Of a DNA stretch of 64,000 nt, positions 5,939-49,153 are shown in pieces (position 1 is the first letter of the stretch; the number at the start of each line of letters is the position of its first letter). Position numbers and translations under genes: made by a program. The notes under the pieces are model-generated. The model worked only from the letters and a program-made list of their open reading frames with translations. It had not been told where the DNA came from and did not search any database. The DNA comes from an uncultured Acidobacteriota bacterium (GTDB taxonomy: Bacteria; Acidobacteriota; Vicinamibacteria; Vicinamibacterales; CAVVIG01): the NCBI GenBank assembly GCA_963792785.1, contig CAWBXO010000002.1:256330-320329 (forward strand). The letters run 5' to 3'.

Positions 5939-6160
5939 CTATCGATCCGGACTCGCCGGACACGCTCCCAGATGATCGCCGTGCGCCAGGTGCGCCGGCA
6001 CGGCGTTTTGGCTTACCGTGATCGTCTGCGCGTTGGCTGGATTGCCCGGCGGGAGGTGACAAATCGTCACGTCGGACTTCTCGGCCAGCATGGTGCCCGC
6101 GAACCACACCGTGGCCACGACGGCCAGCGCGATCAGCCCGATCCATAGTCGCCACTTCAT
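5939..6160 (-). CDS. Small secreted/anchored hypothetical protein (ICHxPPGNP...AHLxHGD motif)
   Basis: 73-aa ORF with an N-terminal TM/signal segment 'WIGLIALAVVATVWFAG', then 'ICHLPPGNPANAQTITVSQNAVPAHLAHGDHLGAC'. It sits directly upstream of the EPS export genes with no gap. Confidence 0.4.
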   Translation of the reverse strand: MKWRLWIGLIALAVVATVWFAGTMLAEKSDVTICHLPPGNPANAQTITVSQNAVPAHLAHGDHLGACPASPDR

Positions 6161-6510
6161 CAGTCCTCCTCCGAGCCAACCGTCGGCGGTCCCCGGCCTC
6201 GCAGTGCCCGTGGACCTCGCCCGGCCCGCCGCGAGTCTCAGCGACCGGCGCTCGGTAGAGCTCCGCCCTGTGACTTACAGTGGAAGACGACCGTCCGCGA
6301 CGGCCACGAACAGATGTGCCGATCGACCGGAGGTGTCTCGAAGATCGTGATTGTGTGCTCGCGGCGTGCCGCCGCCAATGAGGGCGGGCGCGAAAAATGA
6401 GGGGGAGACGGGATCCTATGGGAGAGAGTCAGGCATCACAGCCGATAGACTCATCTACAGCGGCATTTTGAACCCGCGCCACGAATGTTATAGGGCAGAG
6501 ATCCCACGGA

Positions 6511-36849: not shown

Positions 36850-36945
36850 TGGCGGAGAAGGGAGGGAGTCGAACCCTCCGGGGATCGTGTCGATCCCCAG
36901 ACTGGTTTTGAAGACCAGCGGCGCCACCGGGCACCTTCCTTCTCC
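36850..36945 (-). tRNA. selC: tRNA-Sec (anticodon UCA), CCA encoded
   Basis: The reverse complement reads GGAGAAGG-AA-GGTGCC-CGGT-GGCGCC-G-CTGGT-CTTCAAA-ACCAG-(long variable arm GGGGATCG-ACA-CGATCCCC)-GAGGG-TTCGACT-CCCTC-CCTTCTCC-G-CCA. This gives an 8-bp acceptor stem, a 6-bp D stem with a 4-nt loop, the UCA anticodon and a long extra arm, matching the bacterial tRNA-Sec architecture. Confidence 0.9.
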
Positions 36946-39515: not shown

Positions 39516-39566
39516 ACGGCTTGGCCTTCGTTGAAACGGGACGGCATTTGTGCGAGCCTCATCGGG

Positions 39567-40955
39567 ATGGCACACAGCGGCGGGCGGCTTCGGGACCTGC
39601 CCTCGATCGACCGCCTCCTGGTTCTCGCCGCTGAGGAGCCTCGTCTGGCCCGGTTCGCCCGCGAGAGCATCGCGCGCGCCTGCCGGGAGATCGTGGGCGA
39701 GTTGCGGCGCGCCCTCGAACTCGGCGAGCCGTCCGATTCACGATCGCTCGCCGAGGCGTCGGTGCTCGAGCGGGTCCGCGAGCGGCTCACGACGATGGCC
39801 GACGGCGGCCTCACGCGCGTGGTCAACGCCACCGGCACGATCCTGCACACGAACCTCGGGCGCGCGCCGCTCGCGGCGCCGGCCGTCGAGGCCGTCCGTC
39901 TGGCGGCCGCCCATCCCGTGACGCTCGAGTACGACCTGGAGCGCGGCGAGCGCGGGCGGCGTGAGGCCCAGTTGGAACGGCTGCTCGTCGAACTCACCGG
40001 CGCCGAGGCCGCGACAGTCGTCAACAACAACGCCGCCGCGACGCTGCTGGCGCTGAACACCCTCGCCGACGGCAAAGACGTGGTGGTGTCGCGCGGCGAG
40101 CTCATCGAGATCGGCGGCGCGTTCCGGATCCCCGAGATCATGGCGAAGAGCGGGGCCGTGCTGCGGGAGGTCGGCACCACCAACCGCACCCACGCCGCCG
40201 ACTACGAGCGCGCGATCGGCGAGCGGACGGGCCTGCTGCTGAAGGTCCACACGAGCAATTACAAGGTCGTCGGCTTCGTGGCGGACGTGCCCCTGCCGGA
40301 CCTGGTCGCCATCGGCCGGCGGCACGGCGTGCCCGTCATGGAGGATCTGGGGAGCGGGGCGCTGGTCGATCTCGGCCGGTACGGCCTGCCCGCGGAACCC
40401 GTGGTGCGCGACCGCGTCGGGATGGGCGCCGACGTGGTGACCTTCAGCGGCGACAAGGTGCTCGGCGGCCCGCAGGCAGGCCTGATCGTCGGATCGCATC
40501 GCTGGGTGGGCGAGATCTCGCGGAACCCGCTGCACCGCGCCGTACGGTGCGGCAAGCTCACGATCGCGGCCCTCGAGGCCACGCTGAAGCTCTACGCGGG
40601 GGCCGGCGACCCGGCCGTGGACGTGCCGACGCTGGTGATGCTGACGCGGCCGATCGAGCACCTCGAGGACGTCGGAGCGCGGGCCCTGCCCCTGCTCGCG
40701 GCGGCGCTGGGCCCGGAGTTCCGGCTGTCGCTGCGGCCATCGACCTGCCAGATCGGCAGCGGCGCCCTTCCGACCGAAGAGATCCCGTCGAGGGCGATCG
40801 TCGTCGAGCACGATCGCCTGCCCGCCCACCGGATCGCCGAGCGCTTCCGGCGCGCGCGCCCGCCCGTCGTCGGGCGCGTCGTCGCCGATCGCTTTCTCCT
40901 CGACCTGCGGACGATCTTCGATCCGGCCGAGCTGGCGCCGGGCCAGCCGGATTGA
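39567..40955 (+). CDS. selA: L-seryl-tRNA(Sec) selenium transferase
   Basis: '[11 protein letters not shown]', '[18 protein letters not shown]', '[20 protein letters not shown]' and '[17 protein letters not shown]' (PLP lysine). The longest ORF starts at TTG 39531. Confidence 0.9.
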
Positions 40956-40965
40956 ACGGCCCGGC

Positions 40966-42903
40966 ATGTCCCACGTCATCGGCACGGCCGGACATATCGA
41001 CCACGGGAAGACGAGCCTCGTGAAGGCGCTCACCGGCGAGGACACTGATCGGCTCGCGGAGGAAAAGGCGCGGGGGATTTCGATCGAGCTCGGCTTCGCG
41101 CATCTCGATCTCCCGGGCGGCGGTCGAGCCGGAATCGTCGATGTGCCGGGTCACGAGCGCTTCATTCGCACCATGCTCGCCGGCGCGCACGGCATGGACC
41201 TCGTGCTCTTCACCGTCGCGGCTGACGACGGGGTCATGCCGCAGACCGAGGAACACTTCGACATCCTCCACCTGCTGGGCGTCGATCACGCGGTCTTCGT
41301 CGTCACGAAGGTCGATCTGGTGCCCGCGGCGCGGGTGGCCGAGGTCGCCGACGAGATCCGGATCCTCGCGTCCGGCACCGCGCTGGCGCAAGCGCCGATC
41401 GTCGCGTTCTCGTCCGTGACGCTCCGCGGCCTCGACGAGCTGCGCGCCGAGATCGCGCGCGTGCTGGCGGCGATCGATCGGCCCGTGCCGCCCGGCTACT
41501 TCCGCCTTCCCGTCGATCGGGCGTTCGTCCTCCAGGGACACGGGCTGGTGGCGACCGGCACGGCGGTCGCCGGCGTCGTCAAGCCGGGCGATCGCCTGCG
41601 CGCCCTGCCACATGGCCAGACGTTCCGTGTGCGCACCGTGCAGGTGCACAACGAGCCGGTCGACCAGGGGGCGTGGGGCCAGCGCGTGGCCCTGAATCTC
41701 AGCGGAGACGCCAGGCCCGCGCTCGAGCGCGGCGACGTCTTGTGCGACGAGCGCGTCACCTCCAGCTCCGATCGCTTCGATGCGTCGCTCGAGGCGCGCG
41801 CCTCGGCGGGCACGTCGGCCGTGCTGAAGGACCGTCAGCGCGTGCGCGTCCACCTCGGCACGGCGGAGCGGATGGCCCGGCTGATCCTGCTCGGCCCGCG
41901 CGACCGCCTCGACGCGAGGGAAACGGCGTTCGGCCAGCTCGTGCTGTCGCAGCCGCTCTTCGCGGCGCGCGGCGACCGGTTCGTGATCCGCGACGAGACG
42001 GCTCGACGGACGCTCGGCGGCGGCGTGGTGCTCCATCCCCGGCCGCGGATCCATCGCCGGCGCGAGCCGGACCTGGAAGCGCGCCTCAGGATCCTGCAGA
42101 CGGGGAGCCTGTCGGAGGTGCTGGCGCTGGTCATCGACGAGCACGAGGCGTTCGCGGTGCCGCTCGCGCCCGTGTGCGAGCTGCTCAACGCCACGCCCGG
42201 CGACGTCGCCGGCGCGCTGGCGGCGGCGGCCGATGTCCGGGCCATCCGCCTCGAGGGCGACTCGGCCTATACGACGGCGAGAAAGTGGCGCGCCTCGACC
42301 GATGCGCTGCTCGCCTCGCTTCGCGCGTTCCACGCCGGCCATCCGCTCGCGCCGGGCCAGGACATGGAGACGCTGCGCGACACGCTGCCATGGGCGGCTC
42401 CCCCGGGCGTCTTTCGCGCCTGGGTGGACCAGCTCGAGCGAGAGGGCGTCCTCACCCGCGACGGCAGCGTCGTGCGCGCGCCGGAACACACGACCGCGCT
42501 GCGGGGCGACGCGCGCCGCGTCGCGGACCGCATTCTGGCGCTGCTCGGCGAACATCCGCTGACGCCGCCCGATCCTCCGCAACTGGCGGCCGCGCTCGGC
42601 ATCGACGGCGCCCGGCTCGTCGAACTCCTGCGCGCGCTCGAGCGCGAGGGCGCGATCGTTCGACTCGCGCGCGACTTGTATATCCTGACGGAGGCGCTGG
42701 ACACGGTGACGCGGTCCCTTCGCGAGGAGCTGCCCGACGGCGCGCTCCTCACGCTGGCGTCGTTCCGCGAACGATTCGGGACCAGCCGGAAGTATGCGAT
42801 CCCGCTGCTGGAGCATCTCGACCGCGACGGTGTCACGGAGCGTGTCGGCGACGCGCGGCGCCTGAAGGCCGACGCCAGGGAGGTCCGAGAGTGGCGAAAC
42901 TGA
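40966..42903 (+). CDS. selB: Selenocysteine-specific translation elongation factor
   Basis: G1 '[10 protein letters not shown]', '[10 protein letters not shown]', G3 'DVPGHERF', G4 'TKVD', and a long C-terminal winged-helix region ending '[17 protein letters not shown]'. Confidence 0.9.
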
Positions 42904-43961
42904 GCCGCCGCAAGAAGCTGAAGCTGACCGGGCTGACCCAGCGGGTGGCCGCCGCCGGTTGAGCGGCCAAGCTCGGCCCGGCCGACCTGCTGCAGGTACT
43001 GCACAGCCTCCCGACGTTCGCGGATCCCGATCTGATTGTCGGCACGGAAACGTCCGACGATGCGGGAGTGTTCCGCCTGCGGCCCGATCTGGCGATCGTG
43101 AACACGGTGGATTTCTTCACGCCGATCGTGGACGACCCGTTCACGTTCGGGCAGGTGGCGGCCGCCAACGCCTTGAGCGACATCTACGCGATGGGCGCCG
43201 AGCCGAAGACCGCGCTCAACATCGTCGGGTTCCCCAAGGGAAAGATGGATCTGGCCGTGCTCACCGAGATCATCCGCGGCGGGTCGGACCGGGCGCGGGA
43301 AGCCGGGGCCGTGGTCGTCGGGGGGCACACGATCATCGACGACGAGCTCAAGTACGGCATGGCCGTGACAGGCGTGGTGCACCCGGACCGTGTGATCCGG
43401 AACGTCGGCGTGCGCGCCGGCGACGCGCTCGTCCTGACCAAGGCGCTGGGCACTGGCATCATCGCGACCGCGTTGAAGCGGCGCAAGGCGTCGAGGGAGA
43501 GCGTCCGCGCGGCCACTCGGTCGATGGTGGCGCTGAACCGTGCGGCGTCGATCGTGATGCGGCGGTTCCAGGTGCACGCGTGCTCCGACGTCACCGGTTT
43601 CGGCCTGATGGGACACGCCCTCGAGATGGCGAGCGCCAGCGGCGTCACGATCGTCCTCGACGCCGGCAGCCTGCCGCTCCTGCCGGGCGCCAGGCGCCTG
43701 GCCCGGCTGGGCTTTCTGACGGGCGGATGCCGGCGGAATCGTGACCACGTGATGCAGCGCGGCGCGATCGACGGGCCGATCGATCAGGCGCTCGTCGAAC
43801 TCGCGTTCGATCCGCAGACATCGGGCGGGCTGCTGATGGCCGTCGCGCCCGACCGGGCGCGGGACCTCGTGAATGCGCTGCACGCCCGCGGCGTCGGCGC
43901 CGCGGCCGTCGTCGGGCGGGCGACGGCGCCCGGACCGTTCGCCGTGAGGCTGCGCGCGTAA
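42891..43961 (+). CDS. selD: Selenide, water dikinase (selenophosphate synthetase), Sec-containing form; in-frame TGA at 42960-42962 read as selenocysteine
   Basis: ORF 41673..42962 ends '...KLTGLTQRVAAAG' then TGA. The same frame continues 'AAKLGPADLLQVL...TETSDDAGVF...VDFFTPIVDDPFTFGQVAAANALSDIYAMGA'. The alignment to E. coli SelD 'RLTQYSHGAGCGCKI' places U at Cys17 and keeps Lys20. The GTG at 42891 is preceded by GGGAGG. Confidence 0.85.
42988..43007 (+). promoter_or_regulatory. Candidate SECIS-like hairpin for the selD UGA (weak)
   Basis: UGCUGCAG-GUA-CUGCACAGC lies 25 nt after the UGA. It has a 5-bp stem plus a bulged extension and a G/U-containing apical loop. Found by eye only; other local pairings (GGCC...GGCC at 42965-42978) are possible. 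Confidence 0.3.
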
Positions 43962-43971
43962 GACCGATGGG

Positions 43972-45114
43972 CTACGGCGTGGTGCGCTGGCGCACGAGCG
44001 ACCGGAGCGTGAAGGTCCACGAGAGCGGCACGGACTCCGGATTGAAGCAGACCGTGTCGTCGCAGGCCTGATAGTCCAGCGTCGCGTGGACGGTCAGCGA
44101 GTCGAGGCCTCGCAGCGCGGCCTGCGCGTCCGGGGTCCCCTGCAGGACGATGTCCTGCAGCAGCGTGAACGGCTTCTGGTACACGGGCACGCGCTCGTTC
44201 AAGGGCTCGAAGAAATAGACCTCCGACGCCGGGTACCGCGGCGGCAGCACCTGAATGAGCGGCGAGTCCTCGATGCGCACCGCGATCGGCCGGTAGCCGT
44301 CTGCGCCTGGCGCGTACACGTGCACGCCGGGATGCGGCGTGATGTCGAAGGCGAGCGTGAGGCGGTTGCCCGGCGCGAGGGCCGAATCGCTGGGATAGGC
44401 CGTCACGTCGAGGTGCGCGGTCGCCAGCTTCGTGCCGGCGACGTTCGCGCCGGCGTCGGTGCGCATCAGGATGCTCGACACGGTGCTGCGGTCGATGTAG
44501 AAATCCTCGAAGAACCGTGCCGTCACGCGGCCGCTGCGATCCAGCATGAACGTCCCGGGGAACGCGATGCCGGCCATCCGCGGGCTCGCGCCCACGACCG
44601 AGACGTACATCTTGATGTCGTCCGCCAGCGCGGGATCCTTGGCGTTGGGCCCGGCCAGCTCCATCGCCACGGTGTTGAGGATGCCGTAGCGCTTGATCGT
44701 CTCCGACCCGACGTCGGCCAGCATCGGGAACGTGATCGCGTGCTGGCGGCTGAACGCCTGGATGATCTCCGGCGAGTCGTAGCTGATCACGGCCAGACCC
44801 AGGCCCCGGTCAGCGAGCTCCTTCGTGCGGCTTTGCAGCTCGACGAGCTGCGTCTTGCAGTACGGTCACCAATCGGCCGACCGGACGAAGACGAGCATGG
44901 CGCCCCGCGGGCCCATGATCGACTGCAGCGTCTCGGTCCGGCCGTTCTGATCGGGCAGGCTGAAGTCGGGCACGCGCTCGCCGACCTGAGGCCCGAGCTT
45001 CGATACGTCGACCTTCGCCCGCGCCGCGGGCGGGGACTGGGCCGCCGGTCCCGCGGACAGGCCCACACCTGCCAGCAGGGCGACAAACGGTATACAGCGG
45101 AGTGGCGATCTCAT
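43972..45114 (-). CDS. Selenoprotein: secreted AhpC/TSA-redoxin-like thiol:disulfide oxidoreductase (W-U-P-Y-C active site) fused to a DsbD-N/DsbC-like (PF11412-type) domain; TGA at 44866-44868 read as Sec
   Basis: ORF 44866..45264 ends '...GAMLVFVRSADW' then TGA. The same frame continues 'PYCKTQLVELQSRTKELADRGLGLAVISYDSPEIIQAF...' into ORF 43972..44790 (44865-44790=75, in frame). Signal peptide 'MRSPLRCIPFVALLAGVGLSAGPAAQ'. The C-terminal 'TLDYQACDDTVCFNPESV' is typical of DsbD-alpha-like domains. Confidence 0.75.
44835..44851 (-). promoter_or_regulatory. Candidate bacterial SECIS hairpin for the redoxin UGA
   Basis: On the mRNA: UGA + 14 nt (CCGUACUGCAAGAC) + GCAGCUC-GUC-GAGCUGC. This is a perfect 7-bp stem, or 6 bp with a CGUCG loop, with G/U in the apical loop. 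Confidence 0.5.
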
Positions 45115-45244
45115 GGCTTCTGCCCTCGCGATCGACGAATCGCTTCGGGCATTGTAGCAATCTCCGCACCCCGATCCAGCGGAAACGGCGCGCCTGTCTT
45201 CGCTCCTCCTGCCAGAGTTGTCATGAGGCAACGACAGTCGCCAA

Positions 45245-47578
45245 TCAAAAGCGGTAGAACGCATTCACGTACAAGTTCCGTCCTGGCTCGCGAACCCGCA
45301 CCGTCGAACGGAAGGGATCCCGCTGGTACGAGAGGTAGTCGAGATACAGCTTGTCGAAGGCGTTGTCGAGGTTGACCGTCAGGCGCAGCGACTTGAACTG
45401 CCGTCCCGCGCGAAGGTTCAGCACGCCGGAGCCCGGCGTGGGCTCCTCGAGCAGGTCGCTGTCGACGTGGTGCTGCGACGCCGCCACCAGGACCTCCGCC
45501 TCTCCGAACACCGTCAGCCGGTCGTACCGAAGCCCCAGCGACCCGTTGAACGGCGGAATCTCCGCGAGGTTCGTACTGGTGATGCCGCGGCTGGGGTCGG
45601 CCTGCTTGGTGCCTCGCGTGTACGCGGCCATTGCCGTCGCGAACCACCGGTCGGACAACGAGTACGTGACGTTCGCTTCGCCGCTGGTCATGCGGGCGCT
45701 CACACCCTGGTACGACTGTGCGGTCTGATTCATCACGCCGCCGACCGCGTTGATCTTCGCCCCCGGCTCGAGGGCGATGAAATGGCTCAGCCAATCGCGG
45801 TAAACGCTGACGGACGCGACGAGGCGCTGGTACTGGTACGTCACCTCGGCGTTGACGCCGGTATTCCCGGTGGGCGCAAGCGTCGGGTTCCCCACCCAAT
45901 CCGAGCCCATGCGCTGGAGGGCGTAGTAGCGCTCCTGCGGGTCGGGCACGCGCTCGGTATGGCCGATGCCGCCGCCGATCGTCAGATTGGCGGACGCGTG
46001 ATGGGTCACGCGGACGTTTCCCGACGGCATCACGTCCGACGCTGCCGTCGATCGCGTGTCGTGGTAGGCGAAGTACAGATCCGTGTTCGCCTTCTCCGGG
46101 TCGGCCACGCTGCGCGCCCAATCCAGCCGGCCGCCCAAGTCCAGGCGCGTCGCCTTCGACAACGGCCGGCCGTACTCCGCATAAGTGCCGATGCTGTCCG
46201 TGGTGACGTCGGGAATCGCGTATCGGAGCTGGAACTGACTGGCTCTCATCGCAGTGGTGGCGTTCCATCGCCGGCGCGACACCTCGAGACCCATGCTCAG
46301 ACCGGAGAGGTCCGCCTGGACCTTTCCGCCCGCGACGCTCGAGTCGGCCTCCGTGATCATGCTGTAGGGGCGCGGCGAGCCGAGCGATGACGTGCGAAAC
46401 TGATCGGTCATCGAGTGCCCGACACGCGTGAAGTACGCCGCCGTGGAGAACGCCTTGATGCGTCCGTCCGGGTTCGCCACATCGTAGCTGGCCCTGTAGC
46501 GGTCGGCGTGGTCCGAGGTCGCGTCCATCTGCAGATACGGATACAGCACGTTGTCGGCCTGCTGGCCCGTGTACGAGACCTGGACGGTGTGCCCGGCGCG
46601 CGGCGATAGAAACAGGTTCAGCCAGCCGGTATTCGCGCCGAACGCCGGCGAGCCGGCGTTTTCGGGACGATAGTTCGCCTCGTCGGTGAATCTCGCGCCG
46701 GAGCCGTCGCGATACGCGTCCGACGCCCGATACGAGTAGCCGCCCAGGAGGGACCACTTGCGTGTCCCGTACGACATCGTGGCGGACGGGTTGAGATAGC
46801 GGAACGACCCGACGGAGACATTCGTTTCCGAATGGAATCCCTCGGCTGGCTTCTTCGTCACGATGTTGACCACGCCGCCCAGGCTTCCCGGGTTCAGGAC
46901 ATCGAACGGCCCCTTGCCGACGTCGATGTGATCCACCTCGGCGAAGTCAGCGTGGAACACGGCGGGATCCATGTCGTTGGGACAGGCCCCGTAGACCGTC
47001 TGACCGTCGATGAGGATCGTGAGATCCTTGCCCCGGTAGCCGTGCAGGACGATGTCGTTGCCGAGGCCGCCCTTTCGGATCTTCGACACACCGTTCATGC
47101 GAGACAGCGCTTCGCCGATGTCCCGCGCCGTGCTTTCCCGGATCTCGGACGCCTGGATGCTGTCCCGCGTCGCCGCCGCGACGACCGTCACGACCTCGCT
47201 GTAGGTCGCGGGCGCCATCGTGAAGTCCACCTCGCGCGTCTGTCCCTCGGCCACGACCAGATCGCGAAGAATCTGCGTCTGGAAGCCGTCCAGATCCGCG
47301 CGCACCTCGTAGCGCCCTGGGCGGAGCCCTGTTCCGCGGTAGCCGCCGTGATCGCCGGTGACGACGGTCACGGTCGAACCGCCCGTGACGTCGGTAATGG
47401 TCACGACGACGCCAGGCAGACGCGCGGCGTCCGGGTCCGTGACAAAGCCGACGACCGCGCCGGGGCCGGCTTGCTCGGGCGCCGCCTCAGGACGCACGGC
47501 TGTCTGGGCCGCGCTCCGTGCCGGAAACGACAAGACAAGACACACGATCGCCAGCGCCCCGATCGATGATCGATCCAT
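45245..47578 (-). CDS. TonB-dependent outer-membrane receptor with N-terminal carboxypeptidase-regulatory-like (CarbopepD_reg_2) domain
   Basis: Signal peptide, then 'VVGFVTDPDAARLPGVVVTITD...GGYRGTGLRPGRYEVRADLDGF', then the plug ('ALSRMNGVSKIRKGGLGNDIVLHGYRGKDLTILIDG'). A 22-strand-type barrel ends in the terminal 'NAFYRF'. The longest ORF starts at 47596. Confidence 0.85.
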   Translation of the reverse strand: MDRSSIGALAIVCLVLSFPARSAAQTAVRPEAAPEQAGPGAVVGFVTDPDAARLPGVVVTITDVTGGSTVTVVTGDHGGYRGTGLRPGRYEVRADLDGFQTQILRDLVVAEGQTREVDFTMAPATYSEVVTVVAAATRDSIQASEIRESTARDIGEALSRMNGVSKIRKGGLGNDIVLHGYRGKDLTILIDGQTVYGACPNDMDPAVFHADFAEVDHIDVGKGPFDVLNPGSLGGVVNIVTKKPAEGFHSETNVSVGSFRYLNPSATMSYGTRKWSLLGGYSYRASDAYRDGSGARFTDEANYRPENAGSPAFGANTGWLNLFLSPRAGHTVQVSYTGQQADNVLYPYLQMDATSDHADRYRASYDVANPDGRIKAFSTAAYFTRVGHSMTDQFRTSSLGSPRPYSMITEADSSVAGGKVQADLSGLSMGLEVSRRRWNATTAMRASQFQLRYAIPDVTTDSIGTYAEYGRPLSKATRLDLGGRLDWARSVADPEKANTDLYFAYHDTRSTAASDVMPSGNVRVTHHASANLTIGGGIGHTERVPDPQERYYALQRMGSDWVGNPTLAPTGNTGVNAEVTYQYQRLVASVSVYRDWLSHFIALEPGAKINAVGGVMNQTAQSYQGVSARMTSGEANVTYSLSDRWFATAMAAYTRGTKQADPSRGITSTNLAEIPPFNGSLGLRYDRLTVFGEAEVLVAASQHHVDSDLLEEPTPGSGVLNLRAGRQFKSLRLTVNLDNAFDKLYLDYLSYQRDPFRSTVRVREPGRNLYVNAFYRF

Positions 47579-48071
47579 TTGTGATCGCATACACACACCC
47601 TCCTCGAGATGACGTGATCGCGGAAGGGACCTCCCGTTCCGCAGCTCCGGCGAGAGCCGGACGTCGACACGACGCCGAACGAGGAGCTACGCGCGAGGAG
47701 GGGGTGCGATCGGGAACGAGGAACAGGTCGAGGGGACGAGCCGGCGCCTCTTGGGGGGCCGGTGCGCCGACGGACGGGCCGGTTACGCGGGTCGGCGTGG
47801 TGAGGACGCCGGTTTCGCCAATCAGCGCTGCGACGATGGCGATGCCGTCGTCAGCCGCGCCGCGGCACGAGCACGACTTCGAGTCGCCGCTCGACGGCGC
47901 ATGGTGCATTGGGCACTCGGCGCCATCGCCATGCGCGCACGTGCACTGCACGGACGTGGCGTCGCTCGACACGGCGCCACACAGGGCAACCGGGGCAGCG
48001 CTCACGAATGTGAGCTGGAGCACCAGCCAACTGCCCGCGAGCCGCGTGAGGCGATGACGCATCCGTTGCAT
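47487..48071 (-). CDS. Hypothetical Cys/His-rich exported protein (extent uncertain)
   Basis: ATG lies 7 nt after the upstream stop. Hydrophobic N-terminus 'LTRLAGSWLVLQLTFVSAAPVAL', then 'CGAVSSDATSVQCTCAHGDGAECPMHHAPSSGDSKSCSC'. The 3' end overlaps the TonB-receptor start by about 90 nt, so the real stop or frame is doubtful. Confidence 0.3.
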   Translation of the reverse strand: MQRMRHRLTRLAGSWLVLQLTFVSAAPVALCGAVSSDATSVQCTCAHGDGAECPMHHAPSSGDSKSCSCRGAADDGIAIVAALIGETGVLTTPTRVTGPSVGAPAPQEAPARPLDLFLVPDRTPSSRVAPRSASCRRPALAGAAEREVPSAITSSRGGCVYAITNGSIIDRGAGDRVSCLVVSGTERGPDSRAS

Positions 48072-48078
48072 CGCGTGA

Positions 48079-48621
48079 CTACTTCTGCACGATAACCGGA
48101 TCGCCGGTCTCGTGCTCCTTGATCTGATACCGCAGGAAGTCGTGGATCGCGTCCCGCGCGTCGGCGTTCGACGTGGCAATCCGGACGACGCCTCCGCGCT
48201 CGGTGGCCTGGTACGTGTACGTGATCTCCGTCTCGAGCCGCTGCATCGTCGCGACCCCGGGCGGCATTTCGCCGTGCGTCATGAGCGGCTTCTCGAAGTC
48301 GCCCCGGGCGAACGCCTGGGCAATCTCCTGGAGGTGCGCCCGGACTTCACCGAGCGTCGTCTCGTCGGTCGGATCGTTGGCGACGACGGCAATCGCGCCG
48401 CCCTCGGCGGTCAGCGTGAAGTGATGCGTGGCCTTGTCCTGGTCGAAGCCCATGGCCATCTGGCCGTGTTGCTTCAACTCGGCCTCCTTCTTCAACTGGG
48501 CCATGTGCTGTTCGTGCGTCATGCCCGCGGGCATGTCCGGATGTTGCTGGGCCGCCACGACGGACACGAATGGGAGGCTCACGAAGACGAAGACCGCCGA
48601 GAGCCGAGCCAAGGGTTTCAT
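48079..48621 (-). CDS. Periplasmic His/Met-rich hypothetical protein
   Basis: Signal peptide 'MKPLARLSAVFVFVSLPFVSVVAAQQ', then 'HPDMPAGMTHEQHMAQL...HGQMAMGFDQDKATHHF'. A truncated paralog lies at 56461..56697. Confidence 0.5.
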   Translation of the reverse strand: MKPLARLSAVFVFVSLPFVSVVAAQQHPDMPAGMTHEQHMAQLKKEAELKQHGQMAMGFDQDKATHHFTLTAEGGAIAVVANDPTDETTLGEVRAHLQEIAQAFARGDFEKPLMTHGEMPPGVATMQRLETEITYTYQATERGGVVRIATSNADARDAIHDFLRYQIKEHETGDPVIVQK

Positions 48622-48627
48622 GGCATC

Positions 48628-48659
48628 ATCATAGACCCTCGAACGGGTTCAAGGGTCAA
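48628..48659 (-). promoter_or_regulatory. MerR-type promoter/operator: -35 TTGACC, 20-bp spacer containing an 11-bp-arm dyad, -10 TATGAT
   Basis: The minus strand reads ggggacTTGACCcttgaacccgttcgagggtcTATGATgatgccATG. The dyad is GACCCTTGAAC-cc-GTTCGAGGGTC (10/11 complementary) and overlaps the -35 and spacer. The -10 ends 6 nt before the ATG of 48079..48621, implying a leaderless or near-leaderless transcript. The merR-family gene ends 30 nt upstream. Confidence 0.55.
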
Positions 48660-48688
48660 GTCCCCTCTGTCCGCGATGGCCCCAGGGG

Positions 48689-49153
48689 TCAGGATCGGGT
48701 CTTGAGATTCGGCAGCGGAGCACGAGCCGGAAGACGATCGTCGGCCCCCAGGGACTCCAGCAGGCGTGCCGACTGGTTCGGGGGCGTACGCGCCAGGCGC
48801 TGATCCCAGTCCCGAATCGTCCGGTTGATGTCCTTACGGGCCGCCGTCAGCTCCGCGATTCGCCGATCCACTGCGGCAAGAATGCGATCGGCCGCGACAC
48901 GAACGTCGCGACATGGCGTGCCGCCTGCAGCCCGCACTCGCAGGAACCCAGCCACGTCGCGCAAGGAGAAGCCAAACCGCAGAGCGTGCCGAACGAGCCG
49001 GACCCGATCGACCGCGGACGCCGGGAACTGCCTGTAGCCTGCGGCTGTTCGCGTCGCCTTGGGCAGCAAGCCGAGCCGCTCGTAGTGCCGGATCGTATCG
49101 ACGCTGACGCCCGCGCGCTCGGCAATCTCTCCGATCCGCAATGCATCGGCCAT
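48689..49153 (-). CDS. MerR-family transcriptional regulator
   Basis: 'LRIGEIAERAGVSVDTIRHYERLGLLPKATRTAAGYRQF' is the wHTH, followed by a coiled-coil dimerisation helix. There is a single Cys ('GGTPCRDV') and no CueR-type C-terminal Cys pair. Confidence 0.85.
   Translation of the reverse strand: MADALRIGEIAERAGVSVDTIRHYERLGLLPKATRTAAGYRQFPASAVDRVRLVRHALRFGFSLRDVAGFLRVRAAGGTPCRDVRVAADRILAAVDRRIAELTAARKDINRTIRDWDQRLARTPPNQSARLLESLGADDRLPARAPLPNLKTRS

Follow-up and report, generated by a model that had tools for sequence, protein, structure and literature searches.

A probable selenocysteine-containing redoxin fused to a DsbD-alpha-like domain, split at its UGA codon in the annotation of Acidobacteriota genomes

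The subject of this study is a pair of minus-strand open reading frames (ORFs) in a 64,000-nt stretch of DNA from an uncultured Acidobacteriota bacterium (contig CAWBXO010000002.1; the whole stretch is called the window here, and all positions are given in its numbering). It is likely that the two ORFs are one gene encoding an exported selenoprotein of 380 residues, in which a redoxin domain with selenocysteine (Sec, U) in its active site is joined to a domain resembling the alpha domain of DsbD, with the UGA codon decoded by means of a hairpin-type selenocysteine insertion sequence (SECIS) and the two domains acting as a tethered electron relay. The most likely role of such a protein is that of a periplasmic reductase with its own built-in electron relay.

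Results

One reading frame with a single internal UGA

The minus-strand frame that opens with the ATG at 45114..45112 and closes with the TAG at 43974..43972 holds 380 codons and one internal stop. The listed ORFs, 44866..45264 and 43972..44790, are the two sides of that TGA (44868..44866), and the frame check agreed with the initial annotation, in which they had been described as lying in one frame and parted solely by a TGA at 44866-44868. The motif around codon 83 reads RSADW-U-PYC. Translation through the codon gives ...GAMLVFVRSADW-U-PYCKTQLVELQSR..., with PYCKTQLVELQ directly after the U, which reproduces the read-through peptide proposed earlier (...GAMLVFVRSADW-U-PYCKTQLVELQ...). The ORF track places the start of the upstream ORF at 45264, but the N-termini of homologues favor the ATG at 45114, which is also the position stated in the initial annotation.

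By inspection, the N-terminus resembles a signal peptide, with a basic N-region, a hydrophobic core and small residues, although the cleavage site is uncertain, and similar N-termini are present in homologues. This suggests that the protein is exported to the periplasm by a Sec-type (secretory) signal peptide. The full-length fold model used in this study was an AlphaFold2 prediction for P0003, a Cys homologue 68% identical to the window protein, and it contained no membrane helix other than the signal peptide. A promoter and terminator scan of 43800..45400 returned no match.

Homologues were taken from a protein search, in which the query was the read-through protein with Cys substituted at codon 83 and the top 120 homologues were considered, and from a scan of one genome per species, which found 325 related stretches, the best 80 of which were used as loci. 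Figures for invariance and conservation of residues come from an alignment of 87 sequences (A3). The features of the gene are as follows.

43972..45114, minus strand: complete gene of the probable selenoprotein, 380 codons plus TAG with a single in-frame UGA; both ends agree with the N- and C-termini of homologues
45037..45114, minus strand: probable Sec-type signal peptide MRSPLRCIPFVALLAGVGLSAGPAAQ, codons 1 to about 26, read by eye from the translation
44866..44868, minus strand: UGA codon 83, the putative Sec of W-U-P-Y-C; aligned with Cys in full-length homologues and TGA in 69 of 80 loci
44857..44859, minus strand: Cys86, second residue of UxxC; invariant in A3 and aligned with the peroxidatic Cys of AhpE
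44835..44851, minus strand: predicted SECIS hairpin GCAGCUC-GUC-GAGCUGC, with a 7-bp stem and a 3-nt loop starting G-U, 14 nt past the UGA
44518..44985, minus strand: redoxin domain (residues 44-199), AhpC/TSA (Prx/ResA-like) thioredoxin fold; Pfam PF00578, 1.3e-26, 93.4 bits
44557..44559, minus strand: Pro186, presumed cis-Pro, at the position of the conserved Arg of peroxiredoxins; at least 90% conserved in A3
44035..44385, minus strand: DsbD-alpha-like domain (residues 244-360); Pfam PF11412 DsbD_N, 35.2 bits against a cut-off of 25, 1.4e-8
44047..44064, minus strand: Cys351/Cys356 redox pair in YQAC-DDTV-C (C351 44064..44062, C356 44049..44047); invariant in the 87 sequences

The active-site codon in related genomes

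The protein search returned two populations of homologues. In the full-length ones (87 of the 120; about 380 residues, 57-69% identical) the place of the UGA is taken without exception by the Cys of W-C-P-Y-C, so the alignment of U with Cys, which had been suggested as a check on the Sec reading, was found in every homologue that spans the active site. The remaining 33 are short (272-292 residues, 72-83% identical), and most of them start with V/MELQ (or MISYD) just past the motif. The database entry for the window's own product (P0001) is likewise a truncated piece, of 272 aa, as had been predicted for the output of a standard gene caller. Because the short homologues resembled Sec forms clipped by gene callers, the DNA of the loci was fetched.

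Among the 80 species-level loci the active-site codon is TGA in 69 and TGC or TGT in 11. No other in-frame stop is present in any of the 70 TGA-bearing genes (69 loci plus the window), in which at least 75 open codons precede the TGA and at least 276 follow it. In the 30 codons upstream of the TGA, the first, second and third positions depart from the consensus at fractions of 0.16, 0.11 and 0.37, respectively, a pattern that agrees with the variation expected of translated DNA. Since the TGA is conserved as the only stop and the variation upstream of it is of the coding type, it can be excluded for practical purposes that the TGA is an error of sequencing or a true stop, or the gene a pseudogene. 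Homologues with a genuine stop or a domain boundary at this position, named at the outset as the observation that would count against a selenoprotein, were not seen, and Cys or a conserved TGA was found there instead; nor, with TGA present in 69 of 80 independent species-level assemblies, is a misread TGC or TGT a practical concern. Taken together, the comparison strongly supports the reading of codon 83 as selenocysteine.

The hosts of the 80 loci are mostly Acidobacteriota (Vicinamibacterales, Bryobacterales, Terriglobia and Thermoanaerobaculia), with a few bins labeled otherwise. These other labels include Betaproteobacteria, Bifidobacteriaceae, Acidimicrobiia and Gemmatimonadetes (loci L002, L020, L032, L041, L058, L059, L061, L063, L069 and L080), and the presence of the gene there could be due to mis-binning or to horizontal transfer. 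One Sec form (L004, about 6150-6200) has W-U-R-Y-C, which is the sole departure from that Pro among 81 sequences.

A conserved hairpin downstream of the UGA

The hairpin GCAGCUC-GUC-GAGCUGC lies at 44835-44851, 14 nt beyond the UGA, exactly where it had been placed by the initial annotation, and is encoded by the codons of T-Q-L-V-E-L-Q (ACG CAG CUC GUC GAG CUG CAA). The expectation that this region would fold into a stable hairpin held for the isolated element (27 nt; -11.6 kcal/mol; z = -2.96; matched in stability by one shuffle out of 200) and failed in longer frames, where folding was no better than that of shuffled sequences. Given these ordinary energies and the G+C-rich context, a single sequence cannot show the hairpin to be beyond chance; comparative data can. 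In the published model of bacterial SECIS elements, the loop has 3-9 nt and the stem 4-16 bp, a G stands within the first two loop positions, the UGA-to-loop distance is 16-37 nt and the minimum free energy is at most -7.5 kcal/mol (PMC13188914). With a GUC loop, 7 bp, 21 nt from UGA to loop and -11.6 kcal/mol, the hairpin falls within all of these bounds.

For the comparison, 69 Sec sequences (60 of them distinct) were set against 11 Cys sequences. Across the Sec sequences 95.7% of the stem cells are paired, and shifting the partner strand by 1-3 nt lowers the pairing to 11-48%. Columns 21 and 31 never lose their pairing: 50 distinct sequences have G-C there and 10 have A-U, a covariation that comes from a double synonymous change in which Gln CAG>CAA goes with Leu CUG>UUG; the column pair 22-30 occurs as C-G, as U-G and once as U-A. 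The closing pair 24-28 is dispensable: 14 distinct sequences do without it and have a loop of 5 nt. The loop starts with G-U in every Sec sequence. All six core pairs are intact in 66 of 69 Sec sequences compared to 1 of 11 Cys sequences (Fisher p = 1.8e-9). In 8 of the 11 Cys genes an Asp codon (GAC/GAU) stands where the Sec genes have Glu, or Gln in three of them, and this Asp codon is what places a mismatch in the middle of the stem. Variation at third positions is 0.19 over +3..+36 and 0.37-0.44 in the flanks. The hairpin is thus conserved, covarying, specific to TGA-bearing genes and in agreement with the criteria of PMC13188914, which strongly supports its role as a SECIS, as had been proposed from the single sequence.

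Two Cys forms differ from the other nine in that they keep the Glu codon; the stem is fully intact in one (L045:6226-6279) and nearly intact in the other (L046:6145-6198). They look like recent Sec-to-Cys conversions in which decay of the SECIS is still to come. Rfam at gathering thresholds had a sole match in the whole window, the tRNA-Sec described below, and a permissive scan of 44760..44900 gave hits at chance level alone and no family for the hairpin.

The redoxin domain

Pfam AhpC-TSA matches the N-terminal domain above its gathering score, and Pfam Redoxin matches it as well. A PDB search with a profile of the 87 sequences found Mycobacterium tuberculosis AhpE, BCP peroxiredoxins and ResA (ResA at 4e-10 to 1e-4), and the P0003 model (pLDDT 91.4, pTM 0.85) had AhpE, BCP and ResA as its best Foldseek matches, with TM-scores of about 0.77-0.84 relative to the target for AhpE and BCP and 26% identity to AhpE. 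The Prx-type thioredoxin fold is therefore present as judged by Foldseek on the model of the Cys homologue. W82, C83, P84 and C86 are invariant in the 87 sequences, and a helix starts at residue 85 of the P0003 model.

In the alignment with AhpE, the Thr of TxxC is matched by Sec-83 and the peroxidatic Cys by Cys-86. The Pro of the peroxiredoxin motif PxxxTxxC is absent, with RSADWUPYC in its place, so that no PxxxT/SxxC motif is present; Pro186 (GIAFPGTF) stands where AhpE has its catalytic Arg (GIANRGTF), so that this conserved residue is missing too. The protein was not filed as a peroxiredoxin because these two defining features, the motif and the Arg, were tested and failed. The name "peroxiredoxin", which the Cys forms bear in public annotation, was accordingly rejected as a family assignment, since the Pro, Thr and Arg that define the family are missing. 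Of the original description as an AhpC/TSA-type redoxin whose WCxxC motif has U for its first Cys, the domain family and the UxxC motif held up, with the refinement that the domain is no peroxiredoxin in the strict sense. Judged from the sequence, the active site has the layout of a TlpA/ResA/CcmG-type dithiol oxidoreductase, W-U-x-x-C plus Pro186 as the presumed cis-Pro, and not that of a peroxidase.

No NCBIfam model, the selenoprotein models included, attains its cut-off. The best match is "SelL-related redox protein" (NF040769; 57.3 bits against a cut-off of 120, over model positions 2-170 of 173), and the scores for ResA (43.6 bits against 170) and DsbE (14.2 against 123) are lower. By these scores, the redoxin appears related to the ResA and DsbE families and is not an equivalog of either.

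The C-terminal DsbD-alpha-like domain

The C-terminal motif YQACDDTVCFNPESV is present as stated in the initial annotation, where the last 200 aa or so had been called a DsbD N-terminal type of domain. The identity was supported by the DsbD_N match (1.4e-8, above the gathering score), which was the Pfam check proposed for this half of the protein; the size had been overestimated, as the domain extends over some 140 residues (about 230-370). An AlphaFold2 model of the window protein's own residues 226-380 had a pLDDT of 90.2. In a Foldseek search of the PDB, its top 11 matches were all DsbD N-terminal domains (E. coli, Neisseria) or ScsB-alpha, with E-values of 3e-5 to 2e-4, and complexes of DsbD-alpha with DsbC, CcmG and DsbD-gamma were among the top structural matches. 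Identity to the DsbD structures is 13-16% and TM-scores are 0.5-0.66 (0.59-0.66 relative to the DsbD targets), and the predicted fold is the immunoglobulin-like beta-sandwich of nDsbD.

Profile alignment places YQAC-DDTV-CFNPE on YQGC-ADAGF-CYPPE of E. coli DsbD, and C351/C356 would therefore correspond to the DsbD-alpha pair C103/C109 (mature numbering) with one residue fewer between the cysteines. Searches of PDB sequences with the C-terminal domain, either as a single sequence or as a 21-sequence profile, found no DsbD, and the relationship is visible via Pfam, the fold search and the short profile alignment only. Pfam detected AhpC-TSA/Redoxin and DsbD_N and no DsbD_TM, so the protein is not a full DsbD/ScsB transporter.

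Selenocysteine machinery and neighboring genes

The window also holds the genes needed to make and insert selenocysteine, along with other genes near the redoxin gene.

36850..36945, minus strand: tRNA-Sec, anticodon UCA (ARAGORN; Rfam RF01852, 76.5 bits)
39531..40955, plus strand: selA, selenocysteine synthase (TIGR00474, 559 bits against a cut-off of 268)
40966..42903, plus strand: selB, Sec-specific elongation factor that binds the SECIS (TIGR00475, 343 bits against a cut-off of 242)
42891..43961, plus strand: selD, selenophosphate synthetase (TIGR00476, 388 bits against a cut-off of 125), with an in-frame TGA at 42960..42962
45245..47596, minus strand: TonB-dependent receptor; the best NCBIfam match is TonB-dependent copper receptor, 199 bits, below its cut-off
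48079..48621, minus strand: His/Met-rich exported protein of 180 aa with no Pfam match
48689..49153, minus strand: MerR-family regulator, upstream of the redoxin gene and on the same strand

The earlier placement of the redoxin gene in a locus with tRNA-Sec, selA, selB and selD was well founded, as all of these score above curated cut-offs and selD ends at 43961, 10 nt from the redoxin stop. The selD and redoxin genes are convergent and therefore not co-transcribed. UGA also serves as an ordinary stop in the window, because selB ends with a TGA (42901..42903). The in-frame TGA of selD stands in the context AAAG-U-AAKLGP, and selD is itself a selenoprotein gene of the known Sec-containing SelD type. 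Its start is probably the GTG at 42891, which gives a 13-nt overlap with the end of selB; the mechanical ORF list holds only a 297-aa fragment of it, from 43068. Two alternative candidate hairpins, both small, CCUG-CUG-CAGG and UGCAG-GUA-CUGCA (42991..43003), lie 24-33 nt past the selD UGA.

The sel genes adjoin the redoxin gene in 4 of the 80 loci, and so their adjacency is not a general trait of the family. In these four loci (L023, L027, L032 and L001) selA, selB and selD are all at most a few kb away from the redoxin gene, and their arrangement varies. This is more than the window's close relative L001 alone accounts for and far from a rule. Upstream of the redoxin gene and on its strand, the receptor, the His/Met-rich protein and the MerR regulator (45245..49153) may form a metal (perhaps copper) cluster. 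The receptor has a faint match to a "PCPU motif-type" selenoprotein receptor model; it has GACPNDMD and no in-frame TGA. Neither the receptor, the MerR gene nor the other neighbors in the window are conserved beside the redoxin gene in the other genomes (80 loci). At one locus (L031), E. coli DsbD gave one weak tblastn match, and a DsbD-beta/CcdA-like ORF lies about 4 kb from the redoxin gene.

Discussion

Proposed mechanism

In the mechanism favored here, the hairpin 14 nt past UGA-83 would be bound by SelB carrying Sec-tRNA(Sec), Sec would be inserted, and the signal peptide would direct the protein to the periplasm. There the two domains would form a tethered electron relay modeled on the complexes of DsbD-alpha with CcmG, DsbC and DsbD-gamma. 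In DsbD-alpha complexes, Cys109 is bonded to the first cysteine of the partner's CxxC, and in the window protein Sec-83 would take the place of that first cysteine. A membrane system of the DsbD/CcdA/ScsB type would reduce C351/C356, this pair would reduce the U83-C86 selenenylsulfide, and the U83 selenolate would in turn reduce oxidized targets in the envelope, such as disulfides, sulfenic acids and possibly peroxides. The exchange of electrons between the two redox centers is suggested by analogy with DsbD. Selenium could offer faster exchange as well as resistance to irreversible over-oxidation in an oxidizing compartment.

Several points weigh against this reading or limit how far it can be pressed. 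We infer which way the electrons flow, what donates them at the membrane and what the substrate is, and the support for Sec insertion, though strong, is comparative for every member of the family. The folding energy of the hairpin is ordinary in frames of 44, 54 and 76 nt (z = -0.68, -0.09 and +0.97). In addition, the peptide QLVELQ is partly conserved in the Cys forms as well, and part of the nucleotide conservation of the hairpin is therefore a protein-level constraint; constraint of this kind cannot explain the covariation, nor the difference between Sec and Cys genes. The full-length model was built on the Cys homologue P0003 and not on the window's protein, and the hhalign match of the C-terminal domain to E. 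coli DsbD is short (25 columns, probability 44%). A tblastn search with E. coli DsbD as query found no DsbD/CcdA gene in the window. Finally, no neighbor is conserved across the loci, the largest neighbor cluster being present in 13 of 80, and guilt by association consequently yields no functional lead.

Alternative explanations

The readings that deny Sec at codon 83 have the least in their favor. If the TGA were a true stop, a lesion in a pseudogene or an error of sequencing, the locus would give an 82-residue fragment and perhaps a separately initiated fragment of 272 residues. Gene callers do report such fragments, the 272-aa P0001 among them, and the hairpin has an unremarkable energy in longer contexts. 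Nevertheless, the TGA is the sole stop in the frame of each of the 69 loci that carry it, the sequence upstream of it is under coding constraint, a stop there would cut the thioredoxin fold at its active site, and the hairpin covaries and is lost in Cys forms. The comparative data effectively refute this explanation, and we give it almost no credence. It is just as hard to credit that UGA is read as a standard amino acid, whether by a reassigned code or by near-cognate insertion of Trp, Cys or Arg. UGA is reassigned in some bacterial lineages (for example PMC13462651), but in the window it ends selB at 42901..42903 as an ordinary stop, a complete Sec system is present, the codon stands at the position of a redox-active Cys, and it is specifically the genes with the TGA that conserve a SECIS-type hairpin.

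If Sec is accepted, it can still be asked what the protein does and in which direction electrons pass. The relay could run in reverse as a soluble "split DsbD", in which the Sec-redoxin, fed by a membrane CcdA-type transporter and acting as DsbD-gamma/ResA, hands electrons on to the DsbD-alpha-like domain, and this domain in turn acts as reductant for several separate partners with a thioredoxin fold. In DsbD itself, electrons pass from the thioredoxin-like gamma domain to alpha, and ResA-type redoxins are reduced directly by CcdA where alpha and gamma domains are absent. The structural matches include the gamma-alpha complex 1VRS, tblastn found no full DsbD in the window, and the CcdA-like ORF at L031 would suit such a scheme. 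However, the redoxin matches Prx/ResA and not DsbD-gamma in both sequence and fold searches, no CcdA neighbor is conserved, and Sec at the attacking position makes more sense in a catalyst at the end of the chain than in a carrier midway along it; on balance we regard the reversed relay as doubtful, though worth keeping in view. The protein could also be a periplasmic selenoperoxidase, in which H2O2 or an organic peroxide would turn U83 into a selenenic acid, with C86 as the resolving residue and the DsbD-alpha-like domain as the recycling partner. Sec at the start of helix 1 in a thioredoxin fold is the arrangement of glutathione peroxidase too, the closest solved structures are the peroxiredoxins AhpE and BCP, and the public name of the Cys forms fits. 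Caulobacter, moreover, has a periplasmic peroxiredoxin pathway fed by a DsbD-family protein, ScsB -> TlpA -> PprX (PMC3322552). Against a peroxidase stand the motif RSADWUPYC in place of PxxxTxxC, the replacement of the conserved Arg by Pro186, the lack of conserved peroxide-stress genes nearby, and the precedent of Caulobacter PrxL, a Prx-like envelope protein without those residues that has no detectable peroxidase activity (PMC3322552). This role is thus unlikely. A reductase whose Sec-redoxin receives electrons from its own DsbD-alpha-like domain agrees better with the whole of these observations.

Significance

The gene is real, widespread and misannotated, and its architecture hints at its mechanism; it is no conceptual departure from known selenoproteins. 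As UxxC redoxins are the most common type among bacterial selenoproteins, the fusion will be useful rather than surprising to a specialist. The misannotation is systematic, in that the protein collection searched has nothing but N-terminally truncated pieces without the active site for the window product and for 33 of its 120 best relatives, even though the Sec form is in the majority among the species-level genomes recovered (69 of 80). Once the annotation is corrected, the selenoproteome of the Acidobacteriota gains a widespread member; this phylum is dominant in soil, and the selenoproteins listed for it are few. The gene is also a worked example of how a SECIS constrains coding, in which Gln and Leu codons of Q-L-V-E-L-Q covary synonymously and loss of Sec accompanies a Glu-to-Asp change that dissolves the stem, and the fusion offers a compact system for studying selenol/thiol exchange in an envelope reducing pathway.

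A broader idea can be offered tentatively, as one that is more probably wrong than right: many Acidobacteriota might deliver reducing power to the envelope via a selenium-dependent soluble relay, with the fusion as the periplasmic half of a "split DsbD" that works with a bare CcdA-type transporter and passes through a selenenylsulfide intermediate between U83 and a Cys of the DsbD-alpha-like domain. If this were true, redox maintenance of the envelope in an abundant soil phylum would hang on the supply of selenium.

Comparison with known systems

UxxC redoxins are a classic type of bacterial selenoprotein. A 2026 inventory of 119 selenoprotein families lists in its Table 1, among many thioredoxin-fold families, a "Prx-like thiol:disulfide oxidoreductase" (PF00578, UxxC/UxxU; Kryukov and Gladyshev 2004) and a "Redoxin family protein" (PF08534, UxxC) (PMC13188914). 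The window protein resembles these selenoproteins in its AhpC/TSA-Redoxin fold, in Sec as the first residue of UxxC, in having Cys homologues and in the SECIS just downstream within the coding sequence, and its PF00578 match and U-P-Y-C motif agree with the definition of the Prx-like family. In contrast to them, it has a signal peptide and, at its C-terminus, an extra DsbD-alpha-like domain that brings a second redox pair. The listed representatives of the known UxxC redoxin families are WP_010940744.1 (Geobacter; Prx-like family) and HEU0032618.1. No description of a Sec-redoxin fused to DsbD-alpha was found in the table of 119 families in PMC13188914 or in the other selenoproteome literature searched, which is not proof of novelty.

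The hairpin is similar to SECIS elements of the E. coli fdhF type in its short G+C-rich stem just past the UGA and its small apical loop starting G-U, and it conforms to the consensus model of PMC13188914. It differs from them in its sequence, in having no evident bulged U and in its 3-nt loop (5 nt in the variants without the closing pair).

As for the redoxin domain, it shares its overall fold with AhpE and BCP/PrxQ, but Sec stands at the Thr position, Pro at the Arg position, and the catalytic Pro, Thr and Arg are absent. It also carries some 30-40 extra residues, inserted between positions 148 and 185, that set it apart from AhpE and ResA. With TlpA, ResA and CcmG it shares the W-C-x-x-C type of motif, a Pro at the presumed cis-Pro position, a probable export signal and the ResA matches in sequence and fold; unlike them, it has Sec for the first Cys and a fused DsbD-alpha-like domain, and its ResA and DsbE scores are far under the cut-offs.

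The C-terminal domain resembles the alpha domain of DsbD from E. coli and Neisseria (PDB 1L6P, 6DPS, 1Z5Y, 1JZD, 1VRS) in its DsbD_N match, its beta-sandwich fold and its YQxC...C pair, and the natural partners of DsbD alpha are CxxC thioredoxin-fold proteins, the kind of domain to which it is fused here. It differs in its C-terminal place in a soluble protein, in the absence of the DsbD membrane domain and in a Cx4C spacing compared to the Cx5C of DsbD. A functional parallel is offered by the Caulobacter envelope pathway ScsB -> TlpA -> PprX/PrxL, in which the alpha domain of a DsbD-family protein feeds exported AhpC/TSA-like and thioredoxin-like proteins (PMC3322552). The two systems would be alike in the supply of electrons by an alpha domain to proteins of this kind, and ScsB-alpha is among the structural matches of the window protein. 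The components of the Caulobacter pathway, however, are separate proteins and selenium-free, and the two cysteines of its PrxL are far apart in sequence and form no CxxC (PMC3322552), whereas the protein described here joins an alpha-like domain and a probable UxxC redoxin in a single chain.

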